A stretch of DNA of 60,584 bases, the filler included. It is 4 parts of 4 records of this genome, joined end to end, with 100 filler letters (N's around TTAATTAATTAA, not from the genome) between each part and the next. Parts side by side here need not be neighbours in the genome. Positions count along the whole stretch, not along the records: positions 33,064 to 48,548 come from SRR20825019_859; 3 more parts are not named here. One strand, 5' to 3'. The translations under genes and the position numbers were made by a program. Positions 3,231 through 48,648 of the stretch are shown piece by piece. The notes under the pieces were generated by a model. The model saw only the letters and a program-made list of their open reading frames with translations. It ran no database searches and had not been told where the DNA came from. Each line of letters begins with the position of its first letter. Position 1 is the first letter of the stretch.

Positions 3231-3419
3231 TGCAAAAATCCCAGACAATTCCGGATAAATTACTGCATCAATAAAGTGATCTACTATTTTGTTATGACTT
3301 GCGGTTCCGTAAACCGCCGCTGATTTTCCGCGCGATCCACGCAGTAAAACTGATGCAGCTCAGACACACCAAAGAGCGGCCGGAAGCCGAATCCGTGCGG
3401 AAATAGCACAGCCTTTACG

Positions 3420-3857
3420 TCAGGGAAGCACCCGGTTGAGGTAGCCTTCATTATCGGGTTCGGCCGCTTCATACGCCGCATCGAACAAAGGGCTGCCGAG
3501 CACGAAATCGGCACTCGCCTGATTGCAGGCAAGCACGACATTGTAGAGCGTGCAGAGCCGCAGCAGCGCCTTCACATCCACATCATGCGGCATGGATGTC
3601 ATCGGGTCCGTGAAGAAGAGCAGGATATCGAGCCCGCCTTCCGCGATCAGTGCGCCCATCTGCTGATCACCGCCGAGCGGGCCGCTTTTCAGGCACTGAA
3701 CCGCAAGCCCGGTATCCTCGGCAATGACTTTTCCCGTTGTCCCGGTGGCATAGAGATCATGCCCGGCGAACCGGTCCCTGTGAGCATGCACGAACGCCCT
3801 GAGCGCCGGTTTGCGGGCATCGTGGGCGATCAGCCCGATGCGCTTGCGTTCCTTCAT
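3420..3857 (-). CDS. mgsA: Methylglyoxal synthase
   Basis: IGLIAHDARK, ATGTTG, SGPLGGDQQMGA, FFTDP..PHDVDVKALLR. Confidence 0.96.
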   Translation of the reverse strand: MKERKRIGLIAHDARKPALRAFVHAHRDRFAGHDLYATGTTGKVIAEDTGLAVQCLKSGPLGGDQQMGALIAEGGLDILLFFTDPMTSMPHDVDVKALLRLCTLYNVVLACNQASADFVLGSPLFDAAYEAAEPDNEGYLNRVLP

Positions 3858-20737: not shown

Positions 20738-20837
20738 NNNNNNNNNNNNNNNNNNNNNNNNNNNNNNNNNNNNNNNNNNNNTTAATTAATTAANNNNNNN
20801 NNNNNNNNNNNNNNNNNNNNNNNNNNNNNNNNNNNNN
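20738..20837. other. Artificial contig spacer
   Basis: N44-TTAATTAATTAA-N44 with stops in all six frames; composition changes across it. Confidence 0.98.
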
Positions 20838-32689: not shown

Positions 32690-32963
32690 GGCGACCAACA
32701 CGGATTCACGACACACACAACTCCTAAGGATATATATGAGTACAGCATCTATGGAGCTTTATTGGGATACTAAGCTGGGCCCACTGTCAGCACCATTTGC
32801 ATGACTGTCGATGGGAACGCGCGGTGGCCGTGTTGAGAGGCCGGGCGGAGTAGTGGTCAGCTCCTGTCCTCACGATCCACCCCACCACGTTCGCCCTCGT
32901 CTCCAACGGTCGGGGTCAGGTGCCGTTCTGGCTCGGGGGGCCGGGGGGGGGGGGGGGGGGGGG

Positions 32964-33063
32964 NNNNNNNNNNNNNNNNNNNNNNNNNNNNNNNNNNNNN
33001 NNNNNNNTTAATTAATTAANNNNNNNNNNNNNNNNNNNNNNNNNNNNNNNNNNNNNNNNNNNN
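32964..33063. other. Artificial contig spacer
   Basis: N44-TTAATTAATTAA-N44. Confidence 0.98.
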
Positions 33064-33117
33064 GTTGTCTTTACAATCTATTCTGAATTTGTTTCATTTA
33101 ATTTAAGCATCCACTAT

Positions 33118-34023
33118 TTACAACCATTCTGTATCAATACCCATTTCAATAAACTCATCATAAATAGTATCTTTAGCATAGCATAAGGTTGCTTTTTTTA
33201 AATTAGGGAACTGTTTTGCATCGGTACTGTGTTCAATATCCCAATACTCCACTGCTCCACCAGAAAAAGGAGCTAAATTCATATAAATTTCGTTTCCGCC
33301 ATCTTGATAGATTTCTGTAACTTCTTCAGCCAAACGCTTTGGGATTGGTAAATCTTTAAAATATTGTTCTACTTCAGCAATAGGCCCGTAACCTTCCTCA
33401 TCAATATCTATCTCGCGACCTCTATACCATTTTGCAAATTCGTGAATATCAAATTGAGGCTTCAACAATTCTTTAGTATACATTAGCTCTTCAATAACCG
33501 ATAATTTAAATCCAAAATCTTCGAAAGTAATAACTTCTTCATCAAGTCGCTTAATTTTGTATTTATCTTCCGGTATTCCTTCCCAACGCACATACGGTTT
33601 GTAAGCACTTATTTCTATTGCGCTAACGGTGTCTTCGTTCATATCAAACCAAGCACTAATGCCATTCGAGACTAAAGCACCACTATCATCATTTTTAAAT
33701 AATTTTATATGCTGGTTTTTATGCGATTTATAGTAGCTTACAATTTCTTGATTGTTGTAATGAAATATCCCTGAAAATGCTTTTTTTGGACTAAAGTCAT
33801 AGGTTTCAGGTTGTAATTCTATAATTATAGATTCTATAAGTTCCCCACTTTTTGAGTAAGCCAATATTCCTAGATCATCCCAAGTAAAAATAGTATTGTT
33901 TTTCTTCTTTAAGGTTCGATAATTTTTAGTTAAATGGTCTTTTAACACATCCAAAGACACTGGAAACTCAACCATTCTTGAATTTATTTGAAAACCTTTT
34001 GGAGATAAATGTAACGCAATCAT
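33118..34023 (-). CDS. DUF6892-like protein (putative immunity-type)
   Basis: C-terminal FEDFGFKLSVIEELMY...YFKDLPIP....VTEIYQDGGNEIY...FPNLKK pattern. Confidence 0.7.
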   Translation of the reverse strand: MIALHLSPKGFQINSRMVEFPVSLDVLKDHLTKNYRTLKKKNNTIFTWDDLGILAYSKSGELIESIIIELQPETYDFSPKKAFSGIFHYNNQEIVSYYKSHKNQHIKLFKNDDSGALVSNGISAWFDMNEDTVSAIEISAYKPYVRWEGIPEDKYKIKRLDEEVITFEDFGFKLSVIEELMYTKELLKPQFDIHEFAKWYRGREIDIDEEGYGPIAEVEQYFKDLPIPKRLAEEVTEIYQDGGNEIYMNLAPFSGGAVEYWDIEHSTDAKQFPNLKKATLCYAKDTIYDEFIEMGIDTEWL

Positions 34024-34041
34024 AAGTCTATTTTAAGATTT

Positions 34042-34088
34042 CAAAAATAATAGCTTAATCTATATTTTTAATCCCTATCTTCCGTGAT
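34042..34088 (-). promoter_or_regulatory. Operator 1 (ATCACGGAAGATAGGGAT, 34071-34088) + -7 box TATTTTTG (34042-34049)
   Basis: 18-bp pseudo-palindrome, 21-bp gap, Bacteroidota TAnnTTTG element, upstream of the DUF6892-like gene. Confidence 0.75.
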
Positions 34089-34155
34089 ATTTTATATCTT
34101 GAAGCTATTCCTTTTTAGAATTATTTAAATTAACGCATATACTAAAAAGCCAAAA

Positions 34156-34202
34156 ATCCCCTATTTCGGGGATAAAATCTAAAAAGATTAGCTCTAAATT
34201 TG
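34156..34202 (+). promoter_or_regulatory. Operator 2 (ATCCCCTATTTCGGGGAT, 34156-34173) + -7 box TAAATTTG (34195-34202)
   Basis: Perfect 6-bp-arm inverted repeat, 21-bp gap, TAnnTTTG; upstream of the coiled-coil/VWA/PurA-like operon. Confidence 0.8.
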
Positions 34203-34218
34203 TTGAAAACCTTTTATT

Positions 34219-34569
34219 ATGGAAGATCAAGTAAAGAGTGCAGCGTTTATAGCATCATTAAAACGCAATAACGAAAAAATAAGAGACGATCGTGCGCATG
34301 CAATTGCAGAAGATGCACAATTAATGTACAAACGTGAAACCGAAGATTTGGCATTATCGCTAAAACGCTTAAAACGTGAACAAGAAAATATGCTTGATAT
34401 GAGCCCTACAGATGCCAACAGTCTGGTCTTAGCATCCGATTTTAATGCGAAAGATTACGTAGCAAAAGACATCGAAATGTCTGTAAAAATAAGGAACTTA
34501 GAAATAAAATTAGAATTAGCCAAAAAACGTTATTTACATTTATTTGGTGGAACAATAAACGAATTATAA
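34219..34569 (+). CDS. Hypothetical coiled-coil protein (116 aa)
   Basis: Heptad-rich ORF, first gene of a tight operon (2-bp gap to the VWA gene). Confidence 0.8.
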   Translation: MEDQVKSAAFIASLKRNNEKIRDDRAHAIAEDAQLMYKRETEDLALSLKRLKREQENMLDMSPTDANSLVLASDFNAKDYVAKDIEMSVKIRNLEIKLELAKKRYLHLFGGTINEL

Positions 34570-34571
34570 CT

Positions 34572-35438
34572 ATGGGAGGAGGAAGATTTAGTCACGATGC
34601 GTATTCTCGATTGAGAAAATCTAAAGGCTACAGTAATAAATCTAGAGAAGAAATTTTTACGGCTAGACAAATAGATCCTGAAATGGATCCTACAAAAGTA
34701 ATAGTTAGAGAGTCTCGAGATTCTGAGGAACATCCTGAAACGCTTTCTATTATTGTTGCTTTAGATGTAACAGGAAGTATGGGGTTTGTGCCAGAGCATA
34801 TTGTAAAAGAAGCTTTGCCAGACCTTATTGGTTCTTTAATGGAAGCTGGTATTGAACATCCACAAGTGTTATTTTTAGGCATTGGAGATTTTATTTATGA
34901 TAATGCACCATTACAAGTTGGACAATTTGAGTCATCAGCAGAGTTATTAGACCGTTGGTTAACCCGAGTTTATTTAGAAGGTGGCGGAGGTGGAAACAAT
35001 CAAGAAGGCTATAATCTAGCACATTTATTTGCTGCAAGACATACATCGATTGATTGTTGGGAAAAAAGACAACAAAAAGGATTTTTATTTACCATTGGTG
35101 ATGAACCTGTTTCTTCTGACATTCCTGCTGAAATTATAAAGAGATATACCCTTGCAGATGAGGCAGAAACCATAACTACAGAAGCCATTATTAAAGAGGC
35201 TCAAGAGAAATACAATGTTTTTCATATGCATTTAGAACATAATGAATTGTCTAAGCAAGAAAAACGTAAGGGAAATTGGAAAACGCTTTTAGGCGAAAAT
35301 TATATGGAAATACCAGATTTTAAATCCGTGGCAAAACGGATTGCAGAAGTGGTCATTAACAACCATAAACCAGGTGCCGCTACCAATAGATTTAATGCTT
35401 CTGGGAGTTCAGATATTAAAGTAGAGAATATGCTATAA
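34572..35438 (+). CDS. Stand-alone VWA (MIDAS) domain protein
   Basis: LDVTGSM (DxTxS), GIGD, EGGGGGNNQEGY, FTIGDE; Gly-rich MGGG N-terminus. Confidence 0.85.
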   Translation: MGGGRFSHDAYSRLRKSKGYSNKSREEIFTARQIDPEMDPTKVIVRESRDSEEHPETLSIIVALDVTGSMGFVPEHIVKEALPDLIGSLMEAGIEHPQVLFLGIGDFIYDNAPLQVGQFESSAELLDRWLTRVYLEGGGGGNNQEGYNLAHLFAARHTSIDCWEKRQQKGFLFTIGDEPVSSDIPAEIIKRYTLADEAETITTEAIIKEAQEKYNVFHMHLEHNELSKQEKRKGNWKTLLGENYMEIPDFKSVAKRIAEVVINNHKPGAATNRFNASGSSDIKVENML

Positions 35439-36572
35439 ATGCAAAAATGTAGTCTTGTTATAGATTTGGGATTTGGTGATGCCGGAAAAGGCTTAACAAC
35501 AGATTTTCTGGCATCTCAGTGTCCTCAAAAAAGTATCATCGTTCGATTTTCTGGAGGTCATCAAATTGGCCATACTGTTAGCACAAAAGAACTTACGCAT
35601 ACCTTTAGTAATTTTGGTTCGGGTACGTTATTAGGAGTACCTACTTATTATACTGAAAATACCACTCTTTTCCCACCTGGGATTCTAAAAGAAGGGAATT
35701 TTCTAAAAACATACCAGCCTAAATTATACTTAAATCCATTGGCTATGGTAACTACCATTTATGACATAGCCTATAATCGAGCCATTGAAAAACAACAACA
35801 TCACGGGTCTTGTGGCTTGGGCTTTGGAACAACAATCGCTCGAAACAAGGAAGAAGTTTATTTATATGCCAATGATTTAAAATTTCAATGGGTTTTGAAG
35901 CAGCGTTTACAAAGCATTAAAACCTACTACCAACATAAACTAAAAACCGAGAACAAAAGTGTTCAAGCGTATTACCATAATGAATTAAAAGAATACGATG
36001 AAGACTTCTTCATAAATTGCTGTATAGCCATCCAGAAGTTTTATAATGTAGCCTCACTTTCAGAGTTAGCATTCACTTATGAGCATTTTATTTTTGAAGG
36101 TAGTCAGGGTATTCTATTAGATACCCAACACGGTTTTTATCCACATACCACTTGGAGCTACACCACATCTAAAAATGCTATTCAGCTTATAAAAAAACAT
36201 TTAAGTGTTTCAGCGGAAATAGACATCTATTACATTACGCGTTGTTATCAAACCCGTCATGGTAATGGACCTATGTCTAACACGGAAGCTGTAACACTTT
36301 TGAATAATGAAAATGAAGCAAATATCACCAACGAATTTCAAGGGGAGTTTAGGACCAAGGCATTGGATCATGAATTACTTAATTACGCCTTAAGTTGTGA
36401 CTCTATTCATTATCAAAATTTAAAAATTAATAAATATTTAATATTGACATGCCTAGATCAACTTCCGGATTTTTCATGTGAAAGCTTACTTCAAAAAGTA
36501 AAAACTAAATTCAAAACAGTTTACGGTAGTTATGGACCTAAACGCCAATGTATCAAAGTTATTTCAAAATAA
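35439..36572 (+). CDS. Non-canonical adenylosuccinate synthetase (PurA/PurZ superfamily) paralog
   Basis: DLGFGDAGKG, RFSGGHQIGHT, HGSCGLGFG, FEGSQGILLD..HGFYPHTT, TRHGNGPM, LTCLD; lacks GxTTGRxRR. Confidence 0.85.
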   Translation: MQKCSLVIDLGFGDAGKGLTTDFLASQCPQKSIIVRFSGGHQIGHTVSTKELTHTFSNFGSGTLLGVPTYYTENTTLFPPGILKEGNFLKTYQPKLYLNPLAMVTTIYDIAYNRAIEKQQHHGSCGLGFGTTIARNKEEVYLYANDLKFQWVLKQRLQSIKTYYQHKLKTENKSVQAYYHNELKEYDEDFFINCCIAIQKFYNVASLSELAFTYEHFIFEGSQGILLDTQHGFYPHTTWSYTTSKNAIQLIKKHLSVSAEIDIYYITRCYQTRHGNGPMSNTEAVTLLNNENEANITNEFQGEFRTKALDHELLNYALSCDSIHYQNLKINKYLILTCLDQLPDFSCESLLQKVKTKFKTVYGSYGPKRQCIKVISK

Positions 36573-36718
36573 ATCAGTATGCCAATTGCCAACGCATTAG
36601 GCATTTTATAAAAAATGTATTTTTAGATCCAAGGCAAGCCTTGGTGTATTTAAATTTCCATTATACCGTAAAGTAATTCTGATGCATCACTCTCTAGAAG
36701 TATTTCGTTATTTTCAAA

Positions 36719-36765
36719 ATCATTAGTTTCAGGGATAAAGAACTCATTAGTTCAAAGTACCTTAG
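36719..36765 (+). promoter_or_regulatory. Operator 3 (ATCATTAGTTTCAGGGAT, 36719-36736) + -7-like box TACCTTAG (36758-36765)
   Basis: Same motif and 21-bp gap; upstream of the six-gene SMI1...HK-RR operon. Confidence 0.7.
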
Positions 36766-36789
36766 TTGCTTTAAACAACAATAGAGAAA

Positions 36790-37842
36790 ATGAACAATCC
36801 CATATTATATTCAGAAGGTTTTAAAGCACTGAAGTGGAATGATTTTAATTTCAAAACTATTCAAATAAACACCCTTTCAGCTCTTAAAGATCCAAGACAC
36901 TATAACAACTGTTTTATTTTTAGAGATTCACTTATAAAGGCCGTTGAAGAAGTATCTGGAAAGAAAGTTTCTAAGCTTCTTTTCATTACTCCAGATTATA
37001 AAACTGTTTATAAATTCTACATAATTGCTTATTTAGAAGGTAAAATAGTTTTCCCGCTTACAATAGAAAACACGCCATTATTTAAAGAATGGTTTACGGC
37101 TATAGATGATGAAAAGGATAAAGATCTTATTTCTACTATTTATAACTTCAGTCATAGTAGTTATAGCTCACAACCGATTACTAATTTAGAGCATATGACT
37201 TTTCATGAAAATACAGGGGATTTTATTAATCAATTTATTCCAAATGAGTTTATAGCTGAACAATTGGCTAAAGAAAAGGCTGATTTTTTAAATCCTTATA
37301 TTCAATTAAAAGCACAAATTAATATTGAAGAAGTAAAGCAAACCTTTGAAACCTTAATTAAGGCTAAAGGGTTAACCATAAATTCTCCGACAAATAACGA
37401 TGCCATTTATGATGCTTTTGAAAAAGAAGCGGGATTTCCTTTTCCACAAATTATCAAAGCGTACCTAAGCTTGCATAATGGTATTGACAGATGCGCCATA
37501 ATGGGTGCTGAAACAATTTACAAAGAATGGAAACAATGGAAAGCTATCTATGATGATTGGACGCAAGAAGAGTTGCTAGATACGTACACTACAAATCAAG
37601 GAAAAGCATTATTAATGTACACTACCCCTTATTGGATTCCATTTTTTGATTTAAGTAATGGCAATTTTTTAGCCTTCGATTTTGCACCTAATACCAAAGG
37701 TACTGCTGGGCAAATTATTCGTTATGGTGCCGATCAAGAAATTGGATATATCCATGCAGACAACTTACATACATTTCTAAAAAGTTTACTAAATAATGAA
37801 GGTGAAATTGAGGATCATGAATGGTTTTATACAGCCCAGTAG
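36790..37842 (+). CDS. SMI1/KNR4 (SUKH) domain protein with N-terminal extension
   Basis: FEKEAGFPFP..IKAYLSLHNG, WIPFFD.SNGN..AFDFAP...GTAGQII. Confidence 0.85.
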   Translation: MNNPILYSEGFKALKWNDFNFKTIQINTLSALKDPRHYNNCFIFRDSLIKAVEEVSGKKVSKLLFITPDYKTVYKFYIIAYLEGKIVFPLTIENTPLFKEWFTAIDDEKDKDLISTIYNFSHSSYSSQPITNLEHMTFHENTGDFINQFIPNEFIAEQLAKEKADFLNPYIQLKAQINIEEVKQTFETLIKAKGLTINSPTNNDAIYDAFEKEAGFPFPQIIKAYLSLHNGIDRCAIMGAETIYKEWKQWKAIYDDWTQEELLDTYTTNQGKALLMYTTPYWIPFFDLSNGNFLAFDFAPNTKGTAGQIIRYGADQEIGYIHADNLHTFLKSLLNNEGEIEDHEWFYTAQ

Positions 37843-37884
37843 ATGTATTAAAAAAGAAAATAATTTTTGATTAACACCCAGCAA

Positions 37885-40368
37885 ATGTCTACTATTTTTA
37901 AAGAGCACATAATTCCTAAATTAAATATAAAATCATTTAAAGGCGCTGAAATAAAAGCATTACTTCAGATATTAAAATTAATGCATGCCACCGACAATGA
38001 AATCTATAAGAATGCAAAAAAGGATTTTGATACAAATACTACAACCCCTAATTTTACTAATAATCTATCCCAAAGTATTTACTTACACCCAAAAATATAT
38101 GCCAAGGAAAGACAAGGCTTAAAATTTGTTGAGTCTTGGCTTCCACTCTTGGAAAATGGTTTTTATCCTGATAAAAAAAGTACTAGAAAACTTCTTGAAT
38201 TTTTACACTTCAATCTCAGTTATTTTCAGTCAGAAGATACCTCAGAAATAGAAAAAATTCAACTTTTTAAAGTTTTAAAATTGCTGATTCAGAGTAAATC
38301 TGAAGCCTCTCTTCCTGTGGCGTGTTTTTTAATTCATAGGATTTTTGATATTCGAGATGTATTGAACTCAGATTTTATAATTCAGCATTGCCTCAAACAT
38401 CAGCTATTAACAGAAGGATATACCATTAAAAATACAGATCTTTCGATAAGTACAATTCCGTTTGCCATTGATAAGCATTTTATCACGCATTTTTTTGATG
38501 GCAATTGGCATCTATTTATCACAAAGTTTCATCAATTATTACCTGTGGGTCTTGTATATGCTCCATCCGCTTACGATTTGATGTCATCCTGGTTTAGTTT
38601 TGATTTAGCGTCTTTTTATGAAAGCCACCAAGAGATGGCCATTTTCGCAAATCAAGCACTAAAAGAACGTATTATTTGGGGAGAAACTAAAAGCTTAGAA
38701 CTGCTAAATATCCAAACTAAGAACGGTAATTATCCCTTAATAAATGTTTTAGCCAAAAAAACTTGGGATGCTGGTGATGTATTACTATTCAACAATCGAG
38801 ATAAAAACATACCGCAGCAACAGTTAGATAGTTGTTATTTAAATTTTTTAGATTGGTTACTAGTAGATGCTGGAAGCAATTTGAATTCGGAAGCTTTTAC
38901 TGGTTACGGAATTAAAATTTTAAGTGAGTGCACAGCAGAAGCACTTCCGTTAGAATGCATTCCATTTTGGCTTCACAAATGTCATCCAAAAACTAGTCAT
39001 AAAAATCAGAGGGAACTATTAAATCCCATATTCACCAAGTTACTACTAGAAACAACGCACGCAACACTTCCTGCAATGCGTTTTGAAGGAGCAGATTTTC
39101 AAGTCAAAGGAACATTTTTAATTTCCGAAATATTCAAGACAGAAAATAACCTAAAAGAGTGGCTTGAAGACTTTAAAAAGGAAGGTATTAAAAACCCATT
39201 AAATCAATTTTTAATACGCATCTATTATGATGCTAATGAAGAACTAACTTTAATATACACTAAAGAAGAACAAGAATATTTACAGTTATATTTAATAGAA
39301 TTAGCATACTCTTCTAGATATGTAAGTGATTCTATTAGAAAGAAAAATCTACCTATCCTTGTAAAAACTCTTGCTAAATTATGTGCAGAACCAGTAAATT
39401 TCTCACGTGTTAACGAGATTTGGGCACTAAAAAATATTGATGTTTGTATTATAGATATTTGTAACAATTTTGCTCGAGAACACTATATCAATGAAAATAG
39501 TCCGTTAAACTTAAATCTTATACAAGCTTGGTTTAATTATTTAGGCGATTATTTCTATAGTCTAACCAAGGAGGCTGTTTGGGTATCAGAAGCATTAACC
39601 ACTCAAGGCTTACGCACAGCAAATTTCTTCAATATAGAAAAAGAAGATGTTAGCTATTTTTTAGAAAGATTAATTAACCGTATCATTGATTTTCATAAAC
39701 GATGTAAGCTCAAGGAAGAAACCAATCCTATATTCAATAATATTTCTAAACAAATTGAATTGTATTTAACCGATTTTCTTATAGCATTAAAAGAAGAAAA
39801 ACTAAATATAAATACTATAAACTATCTCTATAATTATTGTAAAAGTGATGGAGCTGGTTTAATAAAACAATCCAAATTAATTACTGCTATTAATAATTTA
39901 CATCAATTTCATTTTAAAGAAGAATTATCAACAGAAACCGATTATGAAGTATCACAATTACCTGTCTCTAAAGTTGAAATTGAAATCGTTGAGATTAATA
40001 AAAAGTATGTAGATGCCGTACTTCATAATCTAGAAAATTATAAAGAGGAAGGATGCGACACCCAGTTATTAACAGGTTTATATGAAAAGATAGACGACTT
40101 TAAAATCTGGATAAATTGTGATAAAACTGGAATCGAAACACGATTTAGTCAAGCCCTTTATAAGACGTTGCTCGATACAAATTTAACCCCTAAAACAGAT
40201 TTAAAAACCTACGGCACGCTTTGCAGAAACCTATTTGTGTATTTAGTAAAAGGAACTAAAATGTCCGATTCCTACGTAATGGGATTAAAGGCTATGACAA
40301 AATCTGGAGTCTATCCAGAACATATAACAGCTAATCTACGGCAAGTGGTTAAAGATTTAAATGTTTAA
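37885..40368 (+). CDS. Large hypothetical, likely alpha-helical protein (about 830 aa)
   Basis: Long ORF in AT-rich DNA within the operon; no motif recognised; alternative TTG start at 37867. Confidence 0.8.
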   Translation: MSTIFKEHIIPKLNIKSFKGAEIKALLQILKLMHATDNEIYKNAKKDFDTNTTTPNFTNNLSQSIYLHPKIYAKERQGLKFVESWLPLLENGFYPDKKSTRKLLEFLHFNLSYFQSEDTSEIEKIQLFKVLKLLIQSKSEASLPVACFLIHRIFDIRDVLNSDFIIQHCLKHQLLTEGYTIKNTDLSISTIPFAIDKHFITHFFDGNWHLFITKFHQLLPVGLVYAPSAYDLMSSWFSFDLASFYESHQEMAIFANQALKERIIWGETKSLELLNIQTKNGNYPLINVLAKKTWDAGDVLLFNNRDKNIPQQQLDSCYLNFLDWLLVDAGSNLNSEAFTGYGIKILSECTAEALPLECIPFWLHKCHPKTSHKNQRELLNPIFTKLLLETTHATLPAMRFEGADFQVKGTFLISEIFKTENNLKEWLEDFKKEGIKNPLNQFLIRIYYDANEELTLIYTKEEQEYLQLYLIELAYSSRYVSDSIRKKNLPILVKTLAKLCAEPVNFSRVNEIWALKNIDVCIIDICNNFAREHYINENSPLNLNLIQAWFNYLGDYFYSLTKEAVWVSEALTTQGLRTANFFNIEKEDVSYFLERLINRIIDFHKRCKLKEETNPIFNNISKQIELYLTDFLIALKEEKLNINTINYLYNYCKSDGAGLIKQSKLITAINNLHQFHFKEELSTETDYEVSQLPVSKVEIEIVEINKKYVDAVLHNLENYKEEGCDTQLLTGLYEKIDDFKIWINCDKTGIETRFSQALYKTLLDTNLTPKTDLKTYGTLCRNLFVYLVKGTKMSDSYVMGLKAMTKSGVYPEHITANLRQVVKDLNV

Positions 40369-40371
40369 ATA

Positions 40372-41031
40372 ATGACACAAGATATCACACCCAAAATTCA
40401 GAACCAATTAAATTTATCGGCCTTGATTTTGAAGAAAAATCATAAAAACGCAGCCTTAAAAAGTTGGTCGGGTTTTAACCTAAAAGATGCAATGCACGTT
40501 AAGCATGCGGAAAGACTTTTAACTATGTACGGTATTAAATCAGGCTTGCATTTACGGAACAGTTTACAACGTTACGAGAGCGGACAAATGGTATCTCATA
40601 CTTTTGAAAAATTAGCCGCAGCGTTTCGCAATGATACCAGTAAGACTTTTGAAGCTAAATACCAAGCTCTAGAAAGTCCTAAAACCAAAAACACCTACAA
40701 AATGGTGTGGAAATATCGTTTCAGTTTAAAAAATCAAAAACTCAGAGGATATGAAATGGCAATGTACATTTTTCAAATGAGATTAGGCCTCGTCTTAGAC
40801 TTTATAACAACAGAAGAAATGATGTTGCGTTTAGAAGAAGCCTACAATATTACAAAGTCCACGTTTTCTAGTTGGGGAGAATTTCACCGCAACGTGTGCT
40901 TGGGAGATGAGTACGTTTTAGGGGCTACAGAACTCGATGTTAGTAAATTCCCAGGGACAGAAACACTTTGGGAGCACTACCAACGCTTACATATAGCACA
41001 TGCCGATTGGTTTAAAGAATGGAAAAAATGA
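40372..41031 (+). CDS. DUF1266-like protein
   Basis: L..MYGI.S, GYEMA....MRLG....FIT.EE, FSSWGEF....CLG pattern. Confidence 0.7.
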   Translation: MTQDITPKIQNQLNLSALILKKNHKNAALKSWSGFNLKDAMHVKHAERLLTMYGIKSGLHLRNSLQRYESGQMVSHTFEKLAAAFRNDTSKTFEAKYQALESPKTKNTYKMVWKYRFSLKNQKLRGYEMAMYIFQMRLGLVLDFITTEEMMLRLEEAYNITKSTFSSWGEFHRNVCLGDEYVLGATELDVSKFPGTETLWEHYQRLHIAHADWFKEWKK

Positions 41032-43271
41032 GGATAACAGAACAAGAGCTTATACAACAAATTGAGCGTGCAGAACAACTGTACAAGACCAACCTTTATA
41101 TGCATTTACAGCCTGTAATTAGTAATATACAAGAGCACCTAGAGCTTTTAACTAATAATTCAGACTATGCCAAATATTACCGCATTTATATGCTGTATAT
41201 TGGGATTTATGAAGAACTGAATATGCAAGTTTTGCAGTCTTATTTACAAGCATTAATTAACATTAATGAAGTAGAAGCATCAGATTACGAATACGTTTGT
41301 AGTTATTACAAACAATGTGAAGAAACAGTGTACCAAGAAGCTTTAATGCTATATCCATACAACGAAACTTTACACCTACATTACGCTTTAAAATTACAAG
41401 AAGATAAACGTTTTAAAGAAGCTATTGTTACTTTAAAATATATCCTAGAATGTTATCCTGCCTCCACAGAAGCTCGATTCTTACTTTGGGATATTGAAGC
41501 AACTCAATTAGCACATTTATGTGCATCAAACGAAGAAGCAAACTGCTATGAACTTTTAGAATTAGCTTCGGCTACTCATAATGAAGAAGTTTTAAAAGGA
41601 TTACAATTAGATCATCGATTAGATAAAGCAAATCAAACTTTAGCCTATATACAGGTTGCACTGTGGGAAGAAAGGTCTACTGAAATAAAACAACATTGGA
41701 ATACAGAATGGAAACTTTTAGAATTGACAGCAGTAACACGTATGCTCTTGGCAGATTATGCAAAATCTTTTATGATGTACGATATGGTATCTCAAGTTTT
41801 AAAAGCACCTTCAGAACCAGAGTTTCCAGAAGAAGAGTATAGTAATTTTGAGGAATATCAAACGTTTATCAAGGCGTTTGCTACTTCTGGCTGGCAATTG
41901 GCACAACATCAATATGTATTGATAGGAAATTCGGCATATTTTTATTCAAAAAATAAAGAAATCTTAGATATTAGTGTAGAAAGAGGCTTAGCTTTAAATC
42001 CTAAAAACCCATTACTATTGGTATTAAAGGCAAAATCCTTTTTTTTTGTCAATAATTATAACGAGACCGGAGTAAATTACCACGAAGCATTTAAAAACGG
42101 TCTCCGTTTGAGTGAATATCTATTTTATTTACTAGAAGTAAATAGTAGAATTGAAAATTGGCAAGGTATATTAGATATTGTTGCTCAGTTTCATAAAGGG
42201 ACTCCTCCTACACTTAAAACCTTATTTTTTAAAGCACGTGCACTCGTCAAATTAAGACAATTTGATGAAGCTCTGGAAACGATTAATGTAGCGCTTTCTG
42301 ATTTTCCGTTACCACCTCATTCTTACGCACCATGGTTGTATAACTTAAGAATGATTATTCATAAACAAAACCATAACTACACGGCTTTTTTTGAAGATAT
42401 GCAGTCAGAAATCAATTATTATACTATTGGCGACTCAGAATATTGTAGCACAATGAATATGTGTATTGAAGCCCTTATTGAAATGGGCAATTATCAAGAA
42501 TGTTACAAATATGCCATATATAACCACGAACAAGGACAATTATTACCAGAATTATATCCTGTGTTTCTGTGGATTTGTTTTTATGATTATTTAGAAAAAC
42601 CTGATGATATAGCAGACGCTTCAGAACTAGATTTAATACAAGAACCTTCTACTTTTATAGAATACAGAACCAATGGTTTAATATATTGGATGCTAGGTAA
42701 CATCTGTGCTGCTACAAATGCATTACAACAAGCGGCACAACTAGCCACAAACAAAGCTTACTATTTAAAACTAGCATTAAGTTGCGCTAAAGAGGATTTT
42801 AATACTACAAAAAGTATTGCTGCTTGCCAAATTATTAAAACCCAGATACCAGAATCTAGTGACTGGAAAACAGACTATCTGTTAGCCGATTTATTAAAAA
42901 CAGGGAAGCATTATAAAAAAGCATTAGCTAGTTTTAACCAATTATTACAAAGCTATCCAGACTATTCGTTTTTTGAATTTCCAAAAGACAATAATAATAT
43001 GATGCTAGCCACACTTAAAACATTATCTAAAGCTATAGAGAATGAAGGAGATTACATCAAATACAACGCTATGCTTTTAAGTAAAGAGAATCCTTCTGCT
43101 AACGCATTATTAGAACATTTAGAGGTCGTACAAACGCACTTTGAAACTGATAAATTCCTTCTGCATAATTTATTAGAACAAATTTTCAAGTTAAATATTG
43201 ATTTAGAAAATAATGAATTAGAATTGTTAAAAGACATCAAATCTAAAATAAGAACCTCATATTTCAATTAA
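41028..43271 (+). CDS. TPR-repeat protein
   Basis: Multiple TPR-like helical pairs (RGLALNPKNP, KARALVKLRQFDEAL, ALASFNQLL..YP); ATGA overlap with the upstream stop. Confidence 0.78.
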   Translation: MRITEQELIQQIERAEQLYKTNLYMHLQPVISNIQEHLELLTNNSDYAKYYRIYMLYIGIYEELNMQVLQSYLQALININEVEASDYEYVCSYYKQCEETVYQEALMLYPYNETLHLHYALKLQEDKRFKEAIVTLKYILECYPASTEARFLLWDIEATQLAHLCASNEEANCYELLELASATHNEEVLKGLQLDHRLDKANQTLAYIQVALWEERSTEIKQHWNTEWKLLELTAVTRMLLADYAKSFMMYDMVSQVLKAPSEPEFPEEEYSNFEEYQTFIKAFATSGWQLAQHQYVLIGNSAYFYSKNKEILDISVERGLALNPKNPLLLVLKAKSFFFVNNYNETGVNYHEAFKNGLRLSEYLFYLLEVNSRIENWQGILDIVAQFHKGTPPTLKTLFFKARALVKLRQFDEALETINVALSDFPLPPHSYAPWLYNLRMIIHKQNHNYTAFFEDMQSEINYYTIGDSEYCSTMNMCIEALIEMGNYQECYKYAIYNHEQGQLLPELYPVFLWICFYDYLEKPDDIADASELDLIQEPSTFIEYRTNGLIYWMLGNICAATNALQQAAQLATNKAYYLKLALSCAKEDFNTTKSIAACQIIKTQIPESSDWKTDYLLADLLKTGKHYKKALASFNQLLQSYPDYSFFEFPKDNNNMMLATLKTLSKAIENEGDYIKYNAMLLSKENPSANALLEHLEVVQTHFETDKFLLHNLLEQIFKLNIDLENNELELLKDIKSKIRTSYFN

Positions 43272-43292
43272 AGGTATTAAGTTTACATTTTA

Positions 43293-45260
43293 ATGAAGTT
43301 ATCTCTTACATATTTTATATTCAATTTCTTCTTTTATATAGGAATTAGCACCTTGTCTTATGCTCAAGACATAGATAGTACGATTGAATTAGATTCTCTT
43401 GCAAACATTTATTATACCAATATTTATACGCAACCCCAAATTGCAAAATTAGCCGCTACAAAATGGCTCGAAGGAAGCAAAAATTCAGATTTGGGACTTC
43501 AAGAAGCAAGTGCCTTGTATGCATTAGGAAACCTTAGTAATATTATTGGAGAATATAAAAACACCATAAAATATACAAATCAAGCTATTGATTTACTTAA
43601 AAAACTGGACACTAAAAAAGGATTAGCGGCTTGTTATAATATCCTCGCTTCTGCCTATAAAAATTTAGGTGAATATCCGAAAGCTATTGACTGTTTTATG
43701 AATTGCTTAAAGTATTCAAAACAAACCAATAGCCAAATACAGGAAGCTAATGCATATCTAAATATAGCAACATTGTATCTGCTTCAAAAAGATTATAAAA
43801 AATCAGCAGAAAATCTAGATCGTGCTGCCAATCTCTATCGCTCTTTAGGAGATGATGATGGAGTGCTCACAACGCTATTTAATTTTGCAAATATTTTAAA
43901 AGAACAAGGTAAGTTTAGTCAAGCAAGAAAGCATTACCAAACCGTTTTAGATTACAGAGAAAAAGAAGGTAATAAAGCGGCTGTTGCCTATGTAAATATA
44001 AATCTTTCGCAAATGTTAGTGGAAGAAGGTAAGTGTAAAGAAGCTGTTGTAGCTCTAAAAAAAACATTAGCTCTTTTAGAAGAGCTAAAATTTAATTCAG
44101 ACATTAGTATTGTTTTAAACGATTTAGGTTTATGCGAAACAAAATTAGGTAATACAATTGCAGCGATAAATTATTTTCAACGCGCTTTAGCTATTGGCGA
44201 AGAACAATCGCTACACCCATACAGTTCCGACATATACAAGAATCTGGCAAATTTATATCAAAAAGAAAACAATTATAAAAAAGCATTTGAATTCTATCAA
44301 AAAGGAGTGGCAAGTACTGCGGAGCAAAACTCACTTGATAAAAAGGTATATGTAGCTGAAATACAAGAACGCTATGAAACAGCATTAAAGGAAGCTAGAA
44401 TTCAATTATTAGAAAAAGAACAAAAATTAGGAGAAACAGAATTGCAAAAAGTAGAGCTCACTGTAAAACGCCAACGCTTAGTTAGAAATGTTTTAATAGC
44501 TGGATTTATATTGGTTTTTATTACTTTAATTATTTTAAGGGTTTCTCATATTAAAAGACTACGCATTCAAAAAGAATTGAGTATCCAGCAAGAGGAAAAT
44601 GCTAAGCAGCAAATAAATAAAATGATAAATGATCATAAACTATCTGTTATTGAGCGCTATCAAGAAGGTCAAGATGAAGAACGTTCAAGACTTGCTCGGG
44701 AAATTCATGATGGTATTGGCAGCGATTTAGCAAGCATCAAAATAGCGTTCGAGCAGTATTCAGAACAACACCATGATGATTTCCAATCTAGGAGAATCGC
44801 TTCTGCTATTAATAATGCTTGTGCGGATGTTCGTAGCCTTTCTCATCAATTACACCCGCTCCCCTTTTCAAAAATAGGATTCACTAGTTTTTTAAGTGAT
44901 TTTATTGATCAAATAACTAAAAAAACAGCTACTGAAATTCAAACTTTTTTCTTTCCAGAAGAAGCGATTGATGAGTTACCTGATTTCTTACTAGCAGACG
45001 TATACCGTATTGTACAAGAATTAATTAATAATATTCTAAAACATGCAGAAGCCAAGCATGCTGCTGTTCAACTCACCATGCATGAAGATCATTTAAATAT
45101 TGTTATAAACGATGATGGTATAGGTTTTCAAAATAACAAAAAATCGGGAATAGGGCTTCGAAATATAAAAGAACGCTTACATAAAATTCAAGGTAGTTTA
45201 GAAATCGATTGTAGCCCAGGACGCGGAACATCAATTACCATTGACATACCAGTAAATTAA
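43293..45260 (+). CDS. TPR-sensor histidine kinase (HisKA_3 + HATPase_c)
   Basis: Signal peptide, periplasmic TPR array, one TM (NVLIAGFILVFITLIIL), RLAREIHDGIG H-box, ELINNILKHA, DDGIGF, GIGLRN. Confidence 0.93.
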   Translation: MKLSLTYFIFNFFFYIGISTLSYAQDIDSTIELDSLANIYYTNIYTQPQIAKLAATKWLEGSKNSDLGLQEASALYALGNLSNIIGEYKNTIKYTNQAIDLLKKLDTKKGLAACYNILASAYKNLGEYPKAIDCFMNCLKYSKQTNSQIQEANAYLNIATLYLLQKDYKKSAENLDRAANLYRSLGDDDGVLTTLFNFANILKEQGKFSQARKHYQTVLDYREKEGNKAAVAYVNINLSQMLVEEGKCKEAVVALKKTLALLEELKFNSDISIVLNDLGLCETKLGNTIAAINYFQRALAIGEEQSLHPYSSDIYKNLANLYQKENNYKKAFEFYQKGVASTAEQNSLDKKVYVAEIQERYETALKEARIQLLEKEQKLGETELQKVELTVKRQRLVRNVLIAGFILVFITLIILRVSHIKRLRIQKELSIQQEENAKQQINKMINDHKLSVIERYQEGQDEERSRLAREIHDGIGSDLASIKIAFEQYSEQHHDDFQSRRIASAINNACADVRSLSHQLHPLPFSKIGFTSFLSDFIDQITKKTATEIQTFFFPEEAIDELPDFLLADVYRIVQELINNILKHAEAKHAAVQLTMHEDHLNIVINDDGIGFQNNKKSGIGLRNIKERLHKIQGSLEIDCSPGRGTSITIDIPVN

Positions 45261-45266
45261 TAAATT

Positions 45267-45902
45267 GTGGAGAAAACAAACATTATAATTGCAGACGATC
45301 ATTTAATGTTCATTGAAGGGATCAATACCATTTTAAAAAATATGGACGAAATTGGAGAAGTGCATATTGCAACTGAAGGGAAACAGGTTATTAGATTACT
45401 CTCTCAGTTTAAAATTGGTTTAATTATAAGCGACATTAGTATGCCCAAAATGGACGGTATAGAATTGCTTACAGAAATTAAAAAAAAGCATAAAGACGTA
45501 AAAATAATCATGTTGAGCATGCTCGACAATCATAGAACAGTACATAAAGTCATACAAAAAGGGGCAGACGGTTTTGTTCCGAAGTTTACAAGTAAAGAAG
45601 AGCTACAAAAAGCGGTACGTTCCGTTTTAAATGATGAACAATACTTTTCTGAACTCATAAAACAACGATATATGGAAAGTGTTTTTGAACGCAAAAAATA
45701 TAAAAACATCGAACTATCACCAAGAGAGAAGGATGTCTTAGCGCTTTTAGGAGAAGAGCTTACTTCTAAAGAGATTTCAGAAAAATTATTTATCTCTGTA
45801 AATACAGTAGAAACGCATAGAAAAAATATCCTATTAAAAACAGGTTCTAAAACTACAACTGGCGCAGTACGATTTGCAATAGAGTCTGGACTATTTGATT
45901 AA
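45267..45902 (+). CDS. NarL/LuxR-family response regulator
   Basis: IIIADDH, SDISMP phospho-Asp, LSPREKDVL...SKEISEKLFISVNTVETHRKN HTH; GTG start. Confidence 0.95.
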   Translation: MEKTNIIIADDHLMFIEGINTILKNMDEIGEVHIATEGKQVIRLLSQFKIGLIISDISMPKMDGIELLTEIKKKHKDVKIIMLSMLDNHRTVHKVIQKGADGFVPKFTSKEELQKAVRSVLNDEQYFSELIKQRYMESVFERKKYKNIELSPREKDVLALLGEELTSKEISEKLFISVNTVETHRKNILLKTGSKTTTGAVRFAIESGLFD

Positions 45903-45989
45903 AAAAGCGGCTGTATAAAAAGTGAATTTATAGTTTCAAACTGAGTTTAGACACTTATTATTTAGTCACTTTTTTGTTTTTTTAAACTA

Positions 45990-46973
45990 CTATTCCGTTC
46001 TAATATCATAAAAGGCCAAAGCAGCTCTAATCTCTTTTAATTCCTTATTAGATGTAGTTATATCATTCTTTTCTGTAAGCATCTCTCCGCGATAAATAAA
46101 CCTTGATTCCAAATCAAAATAAACAATATAAATTCCCTTTAAAGGGTTTTGATATTTCTCATTTTCTTTATTATTTATTCTAGTATCTTCTAAATATTGA
46201 ACCCAGGCTCCCTTAGATAAAGAAGATTTATCCAAGAATATTTTTCTATACTCACTAATTTTATAATAAGGATACGTGAGCTCCAATTTGGTTTGAATAT
46301 TATTTTCAATTTTAGTTTTAAAAAGTTCAAAATTAGTTACATTTTCAGATAAGTGAAAAGCATGTACTTTCCACATATTGTCTTCTAATTTCAAAGGCAC
46401 TGTTATGAATCCTTCAGGGTAACTAGGTGTTTTAACTAATAAGCTGTGTTCATAACCATTATTTAATACGTCATAGGAAGCATTCAATTTATCAACAAAT
46501 TTGGTAATTATTTCTTCCAATGTATCTGAAGTTAGTGCTTCTTTAAAAATTAATTCAATCACCGCTAAACCATATTTTACATCTAGAATATCACTTTTAA
46601 AATCTACAATTACCGCTTGTTTAGCTTCATGATATTTCAATGCTTTTTGATATAGATCATTAAATTCTATGTGATATGAAGCTATATAATCGGCAATCAA
46701 TATTTTTTTAGCATCAAAATATGTGTAAAACTCTATATCAGGATTTTTTTTATGATATATATGTACAGAAAATGAATTAGGATTCATAGTAGCTGCATTA
46801 AAAAATCTATTTAAATTTTTATAAGTAAGCTCACCATTATACTCTCTTTCAAGATATTCTTCTAAATTTTTAGAGGCTTGTTTCTTAGATATTCCACCCA
46901 CTATTTGTGCGCAATTAGTAAAAAGAAGTAAGATTCCTAATAAGCAAAGACCTATAATAATTATAGTTTTCAT
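45990..46973 (-). CDS. Hypothetical lipoprotein-like protein
   Basis: MKTIIIIGLCLLGILLLFTNC signal with possible lipobox; ATG 46973 lies downstream of the predicted promoter. Confidence 0.75.
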   Translation of the reverse strand: MKTIIIIGLCLLGILLLFTNCAQIVGGISKKQASKNLEEYLEREYNGELTYKNLNRFFNAATMNPNSFSVHIYHKKNPDIEFYTYFDAKKILIADYIASYHIEFNDLYQKALKYHEAKQAVIVDFKSDILDVKYGLAVIELIFKEALTSDTLEEIITKFVDKLNASYDVLNNGYEHSLLVKTPSYPEGFITVPLKLEDNMWKVHAFHLSENVTNFELFKTKIENNIQTKLELTYPYYKISEYRKIFLDKSSLSKGAWVQYLEDTRINNKENEKYQNPLKGIYIVYFDLESRFIYRGEMLTEKNDITTSNKELKEIRAALAFYDIRTE

Positions 46974-46993
46974 AAATGATATTTTATACCATA

Positions 46994-47040
46994 TAAATTT
47001 AAGTCTGTTCAAGTTTTAAACGCTCACTGTTTTCCGTGAA
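46994..47040 (-). promoter_or_regulatory. Operator 4 (TTCACGGAAAACAGTGAG, 47023-47040) + -7-like box TAAATTTA (46994-47001)
   Basis: Same motif and 21-bp gap; upstream of the lipoprotein gene. Confidence 0.65.
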
Positions 47041-47048
47041 TTTATATT

Positions 47049-47095
47049 ATCACTTAAATGAGGTGTTTATTTGAGAATGTGTTCTAATATCTTTG
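47049..47095 (+). promoter_or_regulatory. Operator 5 (ATCACTTAAATGAGGTGT, 47049-47066) + -7 box TATCTTTG (47088-47095)
   Basis: Same motif and 21-bp gap; upstream of the 131-aa gene. Confidence 0.7.
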
Positions 47096-47124
47096 AATTA
47101 TAAAATAATACTAATATAAATATC

Positions 47125-47520
47125 ATGGGATTACAAGAAAAAAGAGCTGCAAAGGCTATAGAAGATCAATATTTAGGAGATTATCAAAAAGAAATTAATG
47201 AGGTGGTTGGTAAAGAATTACCTATAAACATTAATTGGGATACTTTTGAAATGGATTTCATAAAATTTGTTCCTAGTGTATGCTTGCAACGCCTTACTGA
47301 TGGTTTAAGAGAAGTTTGTAAAGATGCTATGGGAAAAGAAGCTGTTCAAGAGGTTGTTAACTCTATAAAGGTTTATTGCATTCCAAATGAAGGAGCTGAA
47401 GAAAAAAAGGGACTTAATCTAGAAAACGGTGTGTTTTCTTTAACTGCTTGTTGGGGAGGCCATCACAGTGGATACTTTACAGACTTAGTAATACGCGAAT
47501 ATTTAGAGAATAACTTATAA
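47125..47520 (+). CDS. Conserved hypothetical protein (131 aa)
   Basis: MGL.E.RA...INWDTF...D.MGKEA...ENGVF...LENNL; has its own promoter and terminator. Confidence 0.8.
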   Translation: MGLQEKRAAKAIEDQYLGDYQKEINEVVGKELPININWDTFEMDFIKFVPSVCLQRLTDGLREVCKDAMGKEAVQEVVNSIKVYCIPNEGAEEKKGLNLENGVFSLTACWGGHHSGYFTDLVIREYLENNL

Positions 47521-47547
47521 AATATAATGACATTATTTTGAGGGGTC

Positions 47548-47586
47548 AAAAAAGCCTTTAAGAAATTCATCTTAAAGGCTTTTTTT
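47548..47586. terminator. Bidirectional intrinsic terminator between convergent genes
   Basis: AAAAAAGCCTTTAAGA-aattca-TCTTAAAGGCTTTTTTT. Confidence 0.88.
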
Positions 47587-47710
47587 CATCAGAATAACAT
47601 TCCATGTTAAAACTGTAATCACATTGGCTTAATACAAGTGTTTTTTTGTATTCTTATTTTTTTATATTAATAACTCTATTCTACTAACTACATTAGATTC
47701 TTACTTAATT

Positions 47711-48400
47711 TTATAAATGAGCTTCTATTTGTTCTTGTAATTGGATTGCATTTGGAAAACTTCTAAATACTTTAGAAGTGTCTATTGTAATAAAAAGTAC
47801 ACCTTCTACTATTCTAGTTTTATTCTCTTTAGCTAGATTAAATTCAATTTTTGAAACTGAAGTTATAAAAGCTTCTTTAGCCAATGAATCTGAAGCTATT
47901 CTAGAAATTGTTTCTTTGAGTAAAACTAATACTTTTAATGCATAATATTTCCCTGTATCTTCTGGTGTATTCTTATCATTATAAACTATGGAAATTTCTT
48001 TATCTATAATAGACTTTACTACTAACTCTAAATCTTTGATATCTTTTTTTAGCTGAAGTATAGTTGGTATTTCTTCATCTTCAGGAATGAAAGGAATTTT
48101 TCCGTCAGATAAAAGGTAGGCATATTTATTAATGTTACTTATTGAAATTGAAGAAATAGCATGAGCTGATATGTAATTAAATTGAGCCTTCCCGTCAAAT
48201 AAATCACATAATAAAATTGCTTTCTTGTCAGAATCATAATTCACAAAAAAACCAGAAGTACTATCTAAATTCATACTAATGGTAACTTGTGGCATTTGTG
48301 GTCTTTCCTTATCTCTTTCTATAGCTGCAATCTCTAGAAGCATTTCTAAAACTTGATTATTATCTAATACTGGTAATTGGAGCATTGTTTTAAAATCCAT
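47711..48400 (-). CDS. Hypothetical protein (229 aa); C-terminal half resembles the 131-aa neighbour
   Basis: ISRIASDSLAKEAF..SVSKIEF...VEGVLFI...LQEQIEAHL. Confidence 0.78.
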   Translation of the reverse strand: MDFKTMLQLPVLDNNQVLEMLLEIAAIERDKERPQMPQVTISMNLDSTSGFFVNYDSDKKAILLCDLFDGKAQFNYISAHAISSISISNINKYAYLLSDGKIPFIPEDEEIPTILQLKKDIKDLELVVKSIIDKEISIVYNDKNTPEDTGKYYALKVLVLLKETISRIASDSLAKEAFITSVSKIEFNLAKENKTRIVEGVLFITIDTSKVFRSFPNAIQLQEQIEAHL

Positions 48401-48425
48401 ATTTACTTTAATTTAAGTTTAATTA

Positions 48426-48472
48426 CAAAGTTGGCGCAATGCACTACATTTTAAGTAACCAATTTCAGTGAT
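48426..48472 (-). promoter_or_regulatory. Operator 6 (ATCACTGAAATTGGTTAC, 48455-48472) + -7-like box CAACTTTG (48426-48433)
   Basis: Same motif and 21-bp gap; upstream of the 229-aa gene. Confidence 0.68.
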
Positions 48473-48548
48473 ATTTAGATTTGGCTTATGTACAGTAGAA
48501 AAATGAGAAGATTATAATATTCTTATGCTAGCTACCCTAAAAATTAAC

Positions 48549-48648
48549 NNNNNNNNNNNNNNNNNNNNNNNNNNNNNNNNNNNNNNNNNNNNTTAATTAA
48601 TTAANNNNNNNNNNNNNNNNNNNNNNNNNNNNNNNNNNNNNNNNNNNN
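48549..48648. other. Artificial contig spacer
   Basis: N44-TTAATTAATTAA-N44. Confidence 0.98.

Follow-up and report, generated by a model that had tools for sequence, protein, structure and literature searches.

The DNA analysed here, hereafter the window, is a stretch of 60,584 nucleotides (1-60584) made of four joined contigs, the third of which (33064-48548; 15,485 bp, 31.4% G+C) holds a Winogradskyella-like module of 13 genes, g1 to g13, in six transcription units. Each unit is preceded by an 18-bp palindrome, followed after exactly 21 bp by a promoter box of the type TAnnTTTG. We propose that this palindrome is the operator of a local two-component regulon, activated from its fixed position by g10, the NarL/LuxR-type response regulator of the module, and we give this reading a probability of about 0.6. 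That the element is a real, promoter-linked operator is nearly certain; that g10 is the protein that binds it appears likely, and a comparable likelihood applies to the binding being activating.

Six palindromes at a fixed distance from the -7 box

The six sites and their boxes are as follows.

34071-34088, minus strand: site 1, palindrome ATCACGGAAGATAGGGAT, promoter of g1
34042-34049, minus strand: site 1 -7 box TATTTTTG, exact, ending 18 nt before the g1 ATG
34156-34173, plus strand: site 2, palindrome ATCCCCTATTTCGGGGAT, promoter of g2-g4
34195-34202, plus strand: site 2 -7 box TAAATTTG, exact
36719-36736, plus strand: site 3, palindrome ATCATTAGTTTCAGGGAT, promoter of the g5-g10 operon, which ends with the kinase and regulator
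36758-36765, plus strand: site 3 -7 box TACCTTAG, one mismatch, a TTAG variant kept in 13/14 genomes
47023-47040, minus strand: site 4, palindrome TTCACGGAAAACAGTGAG, promoter of g11
46994-47001, minus strand: site 4 -7 box TAAATTTA, one mismatch, with the g11 ATG 20 nt after the box
47049-47066, plus strand: site 5, ATCACTTAAATGAGGTGT, promoter of g12, the weakest site (8.2 bits), 8 bp from site 4
47088-47095, plus strand: site 5 -7 box TATCTTTG, exact
48455-48472, minus strand: site 6, ATCACTGAAATTGGTTAC, promoter of g13
48426-48433, minus strand: site 6 -7 box CAACTTTG, one mismatch, a conserved CA variant

The six 18-mers read as a preliminary description of this DNA had given them, and all six lie exactly 21 bp from a TAnnTTTG-type box, as it had also stated. 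Of the boxes, those of sites 1, 2 and 5 match exactly, and those of sites 3, 4 and 6 deviate at one position. The claim that an operator stands before every unit was likewise confirmed (6/6 units, with the boxes ending 16-29 nt before the first start codon), and the motif does occupy the place of the -33 element, as had been suggested, with no TTG at the canonical distance in any of the six spacers. The motif itself had been written as ATCAC-N8-G(G/T)GAT; the 18-bp palindrome stands, but this form is too simple. The consensus over genomes is ATCAC(T/G)GAAwwCAG(G/T)GAT, that is TCACTG-N4-CAGTGA, with dyad pairs T2/A17, C3/G16, C5/G14 and G7/C12, and positions C3, G14 and A17 are invariant among 30 distinct 18-mers. 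The palindrome of site 2 (34156-34173) also scores as a terminator-like hairpin on the minus strand, which is probably a side effect of its G+C-rich symmetry, because no gene reads into it from that side.

On the contig, the strict palindrome ATC[AC]C-N8-G[GT]GAT is found at sites 1 and 2 only and the other four are degenerate, so that sites 3-6, taken alone, could be after-the-fact picks. A chance resemblance, selected post hoc in AT-rich intergenic DNA, would also suit the strong deviation of three of the six sites from the palindrome and the mismatch in three of the boxes. The comparison with a shuffled background gave a different answer. When a matrix derived from 14 W. costae sites was combined with the demand for a box (one mismatch or none) at offset 21, the contig gave 6 composite matches of at least 8 bits, compared with a mean of 0.023 (maximum 1) in 300 dinucleotide shuffles, and 5 of at least 12 bits, compared with a shuffle mean of 0. 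An independent matrix, built from 8 W. costae sites without an orthologue in the window, gives its highest scores on the window contig to sites 4, 3, 1 and 6. Together with the conservation of all six positions in other species (see below), these results exclude chance as the source of the six sites, and this explanation was rejected. One weak matrix match (TTTATTAAAAACAGGGAA, 5.1 bits; box with one mismatch at 21 bp) falls in the final part of g8, at 42890-42937 and some 350 bp upstream of the kinase gene, and is probably due to chance.

The spacing was examined over eight islands, including the window contig (about 470 kb), using the 186 matrix matches of at least 12 bits and offsets of 5-40. 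An exact TAnnTTTG follows 54 of the 186 at offset 21 and none at every other offset, and when one mismatch is allowed the count is 87 at offset 21 versus 0-7 elsewhere; exceptional gaps of 22 bp also occur. Orthologous sites are not independent of each other, yet each genome holds 10-13 different promoters of this design, which in the relatives extend over about 40 kb. Throughout the islands compared, the motif is co-oriented with the gene behind it.

The contig is syntenic with Winogradskyella costae (L001) and W. psychrotolerans (L002), at 68-76% nucleotide identity, and the module was found in 13 genomes besides the window (14 in all), with a stable gene order. In the intergenic alignments, the palindrome and the box are kept, and the 21-bp spacer diverges in sequence while keeping its length. 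We quantified this footprint as mean pairwise identity for sites 1, 2, 3, 4 and 6 over 12-14 genomes, which leaves out G399 and G234 at site 1 and G234 at site 2 (a miss of the automatic picker or a 22-bp spacing), as well as the whole of site 5, where the picker chose the neighbouring site 4. The identity is 0.88 for both the motif and the box, versus 0.51 for the spacer, 0.65 for the 12 nt upstream and 0.59 for the 16 nt downstream, so footprinting across orthologous loci, one of the checks proposed at the outset, singles out the two elements.

Site by site, the automatic picker found site 1 at 21 bp from its box in 12/14 genomes, and G399 has a site some 550 bp upstream of g1. Site 2 has the right half GGGAT in 14/14 genomes and the left half ATCAC in 11/14; it reads ATCACTGTTATCAGGGAT in W. 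costae and W. psychrotolerans, and its spacing is 22 bp in G234. Sites 3 and 4 are kept in 14/14 genomes, the former as a perfect palindrome in W. costae (ATCACTAGTTTCAGTGAT), the latter mostly as CTCAC-N8-GTGAG (relatives' form CTCACTGAATTCCGTGAG). In the relatives site 5 is deviant, TTCCCTTA-N5/6-GGTGT; TACCTTTG follows it after 21 bp, and site 4 is 8-9 bp away. Site 6 is present in all 13 genomes in which g13 was found, always with a right half like GTTA(G/C). A sample of 401 genomes of the family contains five more, outside the genus list, that carry the kinase (64-78% identity). In the most distant copies, G399 and G234 (kinase 64-65%), synteny extends to all 13 window genes and sites 2-6 persist, with identities of 87-89% for the regulator, 89% for g2, 80% for g3 and 79-80% for g12. 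In a metagenome variant (L083/L084), where g1 and g5 are back-to-back neighbours and g2-g4 are missing from the interval, the site of the g5-g10 operon is retained.

These data also bear on the idea that the repeats serve recombination or mark cassette borders, in the manner of integron-like immunity arrays, and do not act in transcription. The tandem gene cassettes of relatives, which each carry a copy of the motif (see below), could be read in this way, and polyimmunity loci often adjoin recombinases (PMC3482391). However, a boundary element is hard to reconcile with a motif that always points with its gene at exactly 21 bp from a -7 box, and with a gene order that is stable over 14 genomes. 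In addition, no recombinase family was found in the 13 window proteins, in 30 neighbours in the W. costae island or in the 4 flanking genes beyond site 6. We regard this explanation as extremely improbable.

The arrangement is confined to the neighbourhood of the kinase-regulator pair, as had been claimed. In the 4.1-Mb genome of W. costae (G001), the strict composite ATCMC-N8-G-N25-TANNTTTG has 4 matches, all within about 25 kb (C48 21106-46362), versus 0 in the control, and in W. psychrotolerans (G002) it has 4 matches, 3 of which are at the locus. The bare palindrome without the box is near the control level genome-wide (9 versus 7 in G001, 14 versus 6 in G002); it is thus uninformative by itself at this scale, and only the composite with the -7 box informs. 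Clustered composite matches occur in 9 of the 97 genomes of the genus, and kinase orthologues (71-77% identity, the next best match being at 29%) are found in exactly the same 9 genomes and on the same contigs. Per genome, there are 5.11 composite matches in the 9 island genomes (control 0.67) and 1.15 in the other 88 (control 0.80).

Kinase, regulator and their proposed action on the promoter

Two genes of the module encode the two-component pair, and a hairpin separates their operon from the unit upstream.

43293-45260, plus strand: g9, histidine kinase, with signal peptide, TPR region outside the membrane, one membrane helix (394-412), HisKA_3 and HATPase_c
45267-45902, plus strand: g10, response regulator, with receiver domain and GerE/LuxR helix-turn-helix
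36629-36644, plus strand: terminator-like hairpin between g4 and site 3

The kinase is 77% identical to its orthologues in W. costae and W. psychrotolerans, is of the HisKA_3 type and ends 6 bp before g10. The receiver of g10 matches PF00072 (E 2.1e-27, residues 6-118), and its alignment shows the DD pair, the Asp in a DISMP stretch and the Lys in FVPK; the C-terminus matches PF00196 (GerE; E 2e-14, residues 150-204), and the closest solved chains are VraR, NarL and RcsB. In NCBIfam, g10 is below every equivalog cut-off, with MctR as the best model (151.7 bits, for a cut-off of 300). No other protein recognisable as DNA-binding turned up in a scan of the 13 window proteins and of 30 W. costae neighbours. 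The kinase and regulator genes do close the operon behind site 3, as first described: this comprises six genes, g5-g10, with gaps of 24 bp, 3 bp, an overlap, 21 bp and 6 bp. The pair is probably transcribed from site 3, because g5-g10 are tightly packed and the hairpin separates them from g4. The off-consensus box of this site, TACCTTAG in 13/14 genomes, fits what might be a tuned, autoregulated promoter.

In the mechanism we propose, the membrane kinase g9 would phosphorylate g10 in response to its extracytoplasmic TPR sensor. A dimer of g10 would then bind the palindrome, the right arm of which would replace the -33 promoter element, and the bound regulator would bring RNA polymerase with the primary sigma factor to the TAnnTTTG box that follows after 21 bp. 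All six units of the 13-gene module would be switched on in this way, and, with the g5-g10 operon among them, a positive feedback on kinase and regulator is predicted. In the relatives, 4-7 further units would be turned on as well, encoding leucine-rich-repeat proteins, a 1667-residue DUF5724/DUF4132/DUF7737 protein and SUKH/SuFu/Imm34-type cassettes.

With the -7 box taken as centred at -7, the palindrome would reach from about -50 to -33 and have its centre near -41.5 to -42.5. The site abuts or overlaps the -33 position at a fixed phase, with a 21-bp gap in 54/54 cases with an exact box, and because this phase is rigid it favours an activator that touches the polymerase. The same palindrome and the same regulator could also serve in repression, or in a dual mode, with g10 blocking RNA polymerase at -33 until a signal releases it. 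The site does overlap the region that the polymerase must contact, and the -33 element is weakly defined in flavobacteria (PMC7366714), so these promoters might work without an activator. However, a repressor needs overlap only, whereas the invariant spacing, with 22 bp being rare, suits a contact by an activator on one face of the helix, and a TTG at the canonical distance is absent from all six spacers. We consider repression rather unlikely.

Another possibility is that the right arm is a -35-like element of an alternative sigma factor, which would account for the constant distance to the downstream box. This is very unlikely: the dyad symmetry spans both arms, the downstream box is the TAnnTTTG of the primary sigma factor, and the island has no sigma-factor gene, the only Sigma70_r4 signal being the weak overlap usual for a GerE domain.

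Paralogous systems bear on the identity of the binding protein. Unlinked operons with a TPR kinase and a LuxR-type regulator have similar palindromes 21-22 bp before their own -7 boxes, and at least three paralogous lineages (L035-L040, L060-L066) have their own 5-N8-5 palindromes, with arms ATCCC, ATCAC or ATACC, before the kinase gene. For the type with a 697-residue kinase, A[TC]CCCTGTTTTCGGGGAT is followed after 21 bp by TAAATTTG in 6/6 loci, and a second site occurs after the regulator gene in 3/6 loci. This second site precedes a downstream operon encoding SIMPL-like and LipL32-like proteins. The type with a 631-residue kinase has ATCACGGAAATCGGTGAT (G036) and TTCACTGAATTCAGTGAC (G015) 21 bp before boxes with two mismatches (2/2 loci), and the type with a 642-residue kinase has ATACCTAATTGTAGGTAT 22 bp before the box (4/4 loci). 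An automatic search for a palindrome exactly 21 bp from an exact box returned nothing relevant in eight more distant paralogue loci; when these were read by eye, six showed palindromes that either stood at 22 bp or had weaker boxes, and two (L059, L065) showed none.

The palindrome could instead be bound by one of these LuxR-type paralogues, encoded elsewhere, or by an island protein not recognised as DNA-binding. The recognition helices are very similar, the palindromes ATCACGGAAATCGGTGAT in G036 and TTCACTGAATTCAGTGAC in G015, which has no island, are almost the same as those described here, and about half of the island proteins have no known family. Yet the closest other regulator in W. costae, its only other close one and 62% identical to the G036 paralogue, sits behind a palindrome of the ATACC/GGGAT type and not of the ATCAC type. 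The sites are, moreover, confined to the g9-g10 locus, and the g5-g10 operon retains its site in every variant seen. A binder other than g10 is therefore improbable, to about the same degree as repression.

Several observations weigh against activation by g10. Since the -33 element is ill-defined in flavobacteria, the missing TTG argues only weakly for activator dependence. Kinase and sites occur together as linked parts of one block, which is not independent proof. As 6/13 window proteins and 15/30 of the W. costae neighbours have no Pfam family, one of these could be an unrecognised DNA-binding protein. Some island genomes, such as G036, contain paralogous regulators with near-identical palindromes, and for this reason cross-regulation is possible. 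At 2/14 paralogous kinase loci (L059, L065) there is no such palindrome. The recognition helix is identical in paralogues with ATCCC and ATCAC palindromes, and no usable covariation of residues and bases was found. Finally, the independent matrix gives site 2 just 6.1 bits and places site 5 outside the top 25; these two weak sites are still conserved at orthologous positions in relatives.

Gene content of the module and of the wider proposed regulon

The other genes of the module are the following.

33118-34023, minus strand: g1, DUF7738 and DUF6892 protein
34219-36572, plus strand: operon of g2 (116 residues), g3 (288 residues) and g4 (377 residues, adenylosuccinate-synthetase-like)
36790-43271, plus strand: g5 (SUKH-1), g6 (833 residues), g7 (DUF1266) and g8 (TPR, 750 residues)
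45990-46973, minus strand: g11, predicted lipoprotein
47125-47520, plus strand: g12, 131 residues, no assigned family
47711-48400, minus strand: g13, 229 residues, no assigned family

The PurA-like g4 retains the motifs GDAGKG, GGHQIGHT and TRHGNGP. Together with g3 (window 34572-36572), it is also found as an adjacent pair in Vibrio phage Va1 (L087 4001-6083), where the two are annotated as a hypothetical protein and adenylosuccinate synthase. By tblastn, g3 has matches in 218 phage records, 200 of them from mycobacteriophages; the ESM Atlas returned for it unnamed clusters and, as a lead only, a weak von Willebrand A match at 0.83. For the window proteins PADLOC identified no known defence system, its matches being to one candidate-cluster model (PDC-M40A, on g5) and to generic TPR and receiver models, and NCBIfam gave generic kinase, regulator and PurA models only, all under the cut-off. 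The region between g12 and g13 (47521-47710) is non-coding and contains a long hairpin, aaaaagcctttaag...cttaaaggcttttttt, which looks like a two-way terminator.

In W. costae, the operator also stands before two leucine-rich-repeat proteins, before the 1667-residue DUF5724/DUF4132/DUF7737 protein, which has a GNAT enzyme behind it, before repeated cassettes of about 205 residues, and before an operon of 13 genes that include DUF1963, DUF2262, DUF2314, SUKH-1, SuFu, a 2OG-Fe(II) oxygenase and an endonuclease-V-like gene. This extension has two DUF1963 genes and mixes immunity-type families with enzymes and leucine-rich-repeat proteins. The cassettes of about 205 residues, one of which matches DUF1444, are present in 2-4 tandem copies (G001:C48:27956-31097, with equivalents in G006, G036, G092 and G097). 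Each has its own AT(A/G)GCTGAATACCGTGAT site and TAATTTTG box, and gene and promoter seem to duplicate together. Relatives also have a 130-residue Hcp/TssD-like gene after g13 (G001:C48:60214-60606; 32 bits, for a cut-off of 25.8), of which tblastn found no copy on the window contig. As SUKH, SuFu and DUF2314 (Imm34) are families of heterogeneous polyimmunity loci, a role of the regulon in conflict or defence is a reasonable, if provisional, reading.

The module had been called self-contained, which holds for the 13 conserved genes and not for the full extent of the regulon, given the 10-13 promoters of the relatives and a contig that ends by assembly and not at an island boundary. A metagenome contig (L082), 99% identical to g1, continues past the end of the window contig into a further regulon gene: its positions 1023-3447 hold a convergent 137-residue gene and the 3' part (C-terminal 629 residues) of a DUF5724/DUF4132/DUF7737 protein, the gene of which has its own site in relatives. 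Near the module, this giant gene is present in 12/12 related islands, and a leucine-rich-repeat gene in 9/12 within the stretches fetched. The four contigs of the window are joined via N/TTAATTAATTAA spacers at 20738-20837, 32964-33063 and 48549-48648, and have very unequal G+C contents (about 62%, 53%, 31% and 50%). A poly-G run occurs at the end of contig 2 (about 32940-32963), and more than one organism seems to have contributed to the underlying assembly.

Relation to known systems and significance

The kind of system described here is known, namely a NarL-type two-component regulon with its operator at the upstream promoter element. Dimers of NarL-family regulators bind inverted repeats. 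Like NarL, VraR and RcsB of the NarL/FixJ family, g10 combines a receiver with a GerE helix-turn-helix and has a HisKA_3 kinase as partner, whereas the sensor of g9 is, unlike in this family, a TPR domain outside the membrane. Arms such as ATCCCCT and ATACCTA resemble TACYYMT, which we take to be the NarL heptamer, and the arms of the palindrome are presumably further apart than in the 7-2-7 arrangement of NarL.

The lux box of LuxR is a 20-bp inverted repeat centred at -42.5, in which both arms matter (PMC3376562). The palindrome resembles the LuxR/TraR lux box as an inverted repeat of 18-20 bp over the upstream promoter element, with its centre near -42 if the box is at -7 (PMC3376562 and PMC7366714). 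In contrast, g10 has a phospho-receiver and no acyl-homoserine-lactone-binding domain, and the promoter is of the Bacteroidota -7/-33 type. The primary-sigma promoter of Bacteroidota has TTTG at -33 and TAnnTTTG at -7, according to PMC2483708 and PMC7366714. The promoters of the module agree with it in the -7 box (exact in 3/6, one mismatch in 3/6), but have no TTG or TTTG at the -33 place, where the right arm of the palindrome is found instead.

The gene content recalls the heterogeneous polyimmunity loci (Zhang et al. 2012, PMC3482391) in that the W. costae regulon has SUKH-1, SuFu and DUF2314 (Imm34 there), with many small genes on the same strand and short gaps. For those loci one polycistronic message was suggested, and no regulator is named in the passages of PMC3482391 consulted, whereas here there are many units, each with its operator, and a kinase-regulator pair is embedded among them. 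Another difference is that the window contig has one SUKH gene only, and an immunity function is suggested here by the family names. Full-text literature searches returned no description of such a site, and as far as they show, what is new is the setting in this type of promoter, the count of promoters with a rigid phase, the set of genes and the rule drawn from the paralogues.

Few regulator binding sites have been defined in Bacteroidota, the -7/-33 promoters of which differ from the textbook type. With 6-13 natural promoters per genome that share one operator at one phase, and with their conservation in the cultured W. costae and W. psychrotolerans, the rules of activation at a promoter of the -7/-33 type can be put to a direct test. 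The findings also suggest that polyimmunity-like gene sets may be controlled by a signal unit by unit, and not expressed as one constitutive message, and the comparison of paralogues provides a working rule by which regulons may be predicted for a large class of two-component systems in flavobacteria that has so far not been studied. On a broader and tentative reading, which we hold to be possible and less likely than the regulon itself, the locus would be an inducible conflict island, in which the TPR kinase senses attack or envelope damage and one NarL-type regulator acts on 6-13 promoters. These promoters would have swapped their -33 element for a rigidly placed palindrome, and would drive immunity-type, Hcp-like and leucine-rich-repeat proteins and the PurA-like pair shared with phages; the same design would be general for the Flavobacteriaceae clade of TPR kinases and LuxR-type regulators. 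If this were true, it would be the first defined activator-promoter grammar for the unusual primary sigma factor of Bacteroidota.

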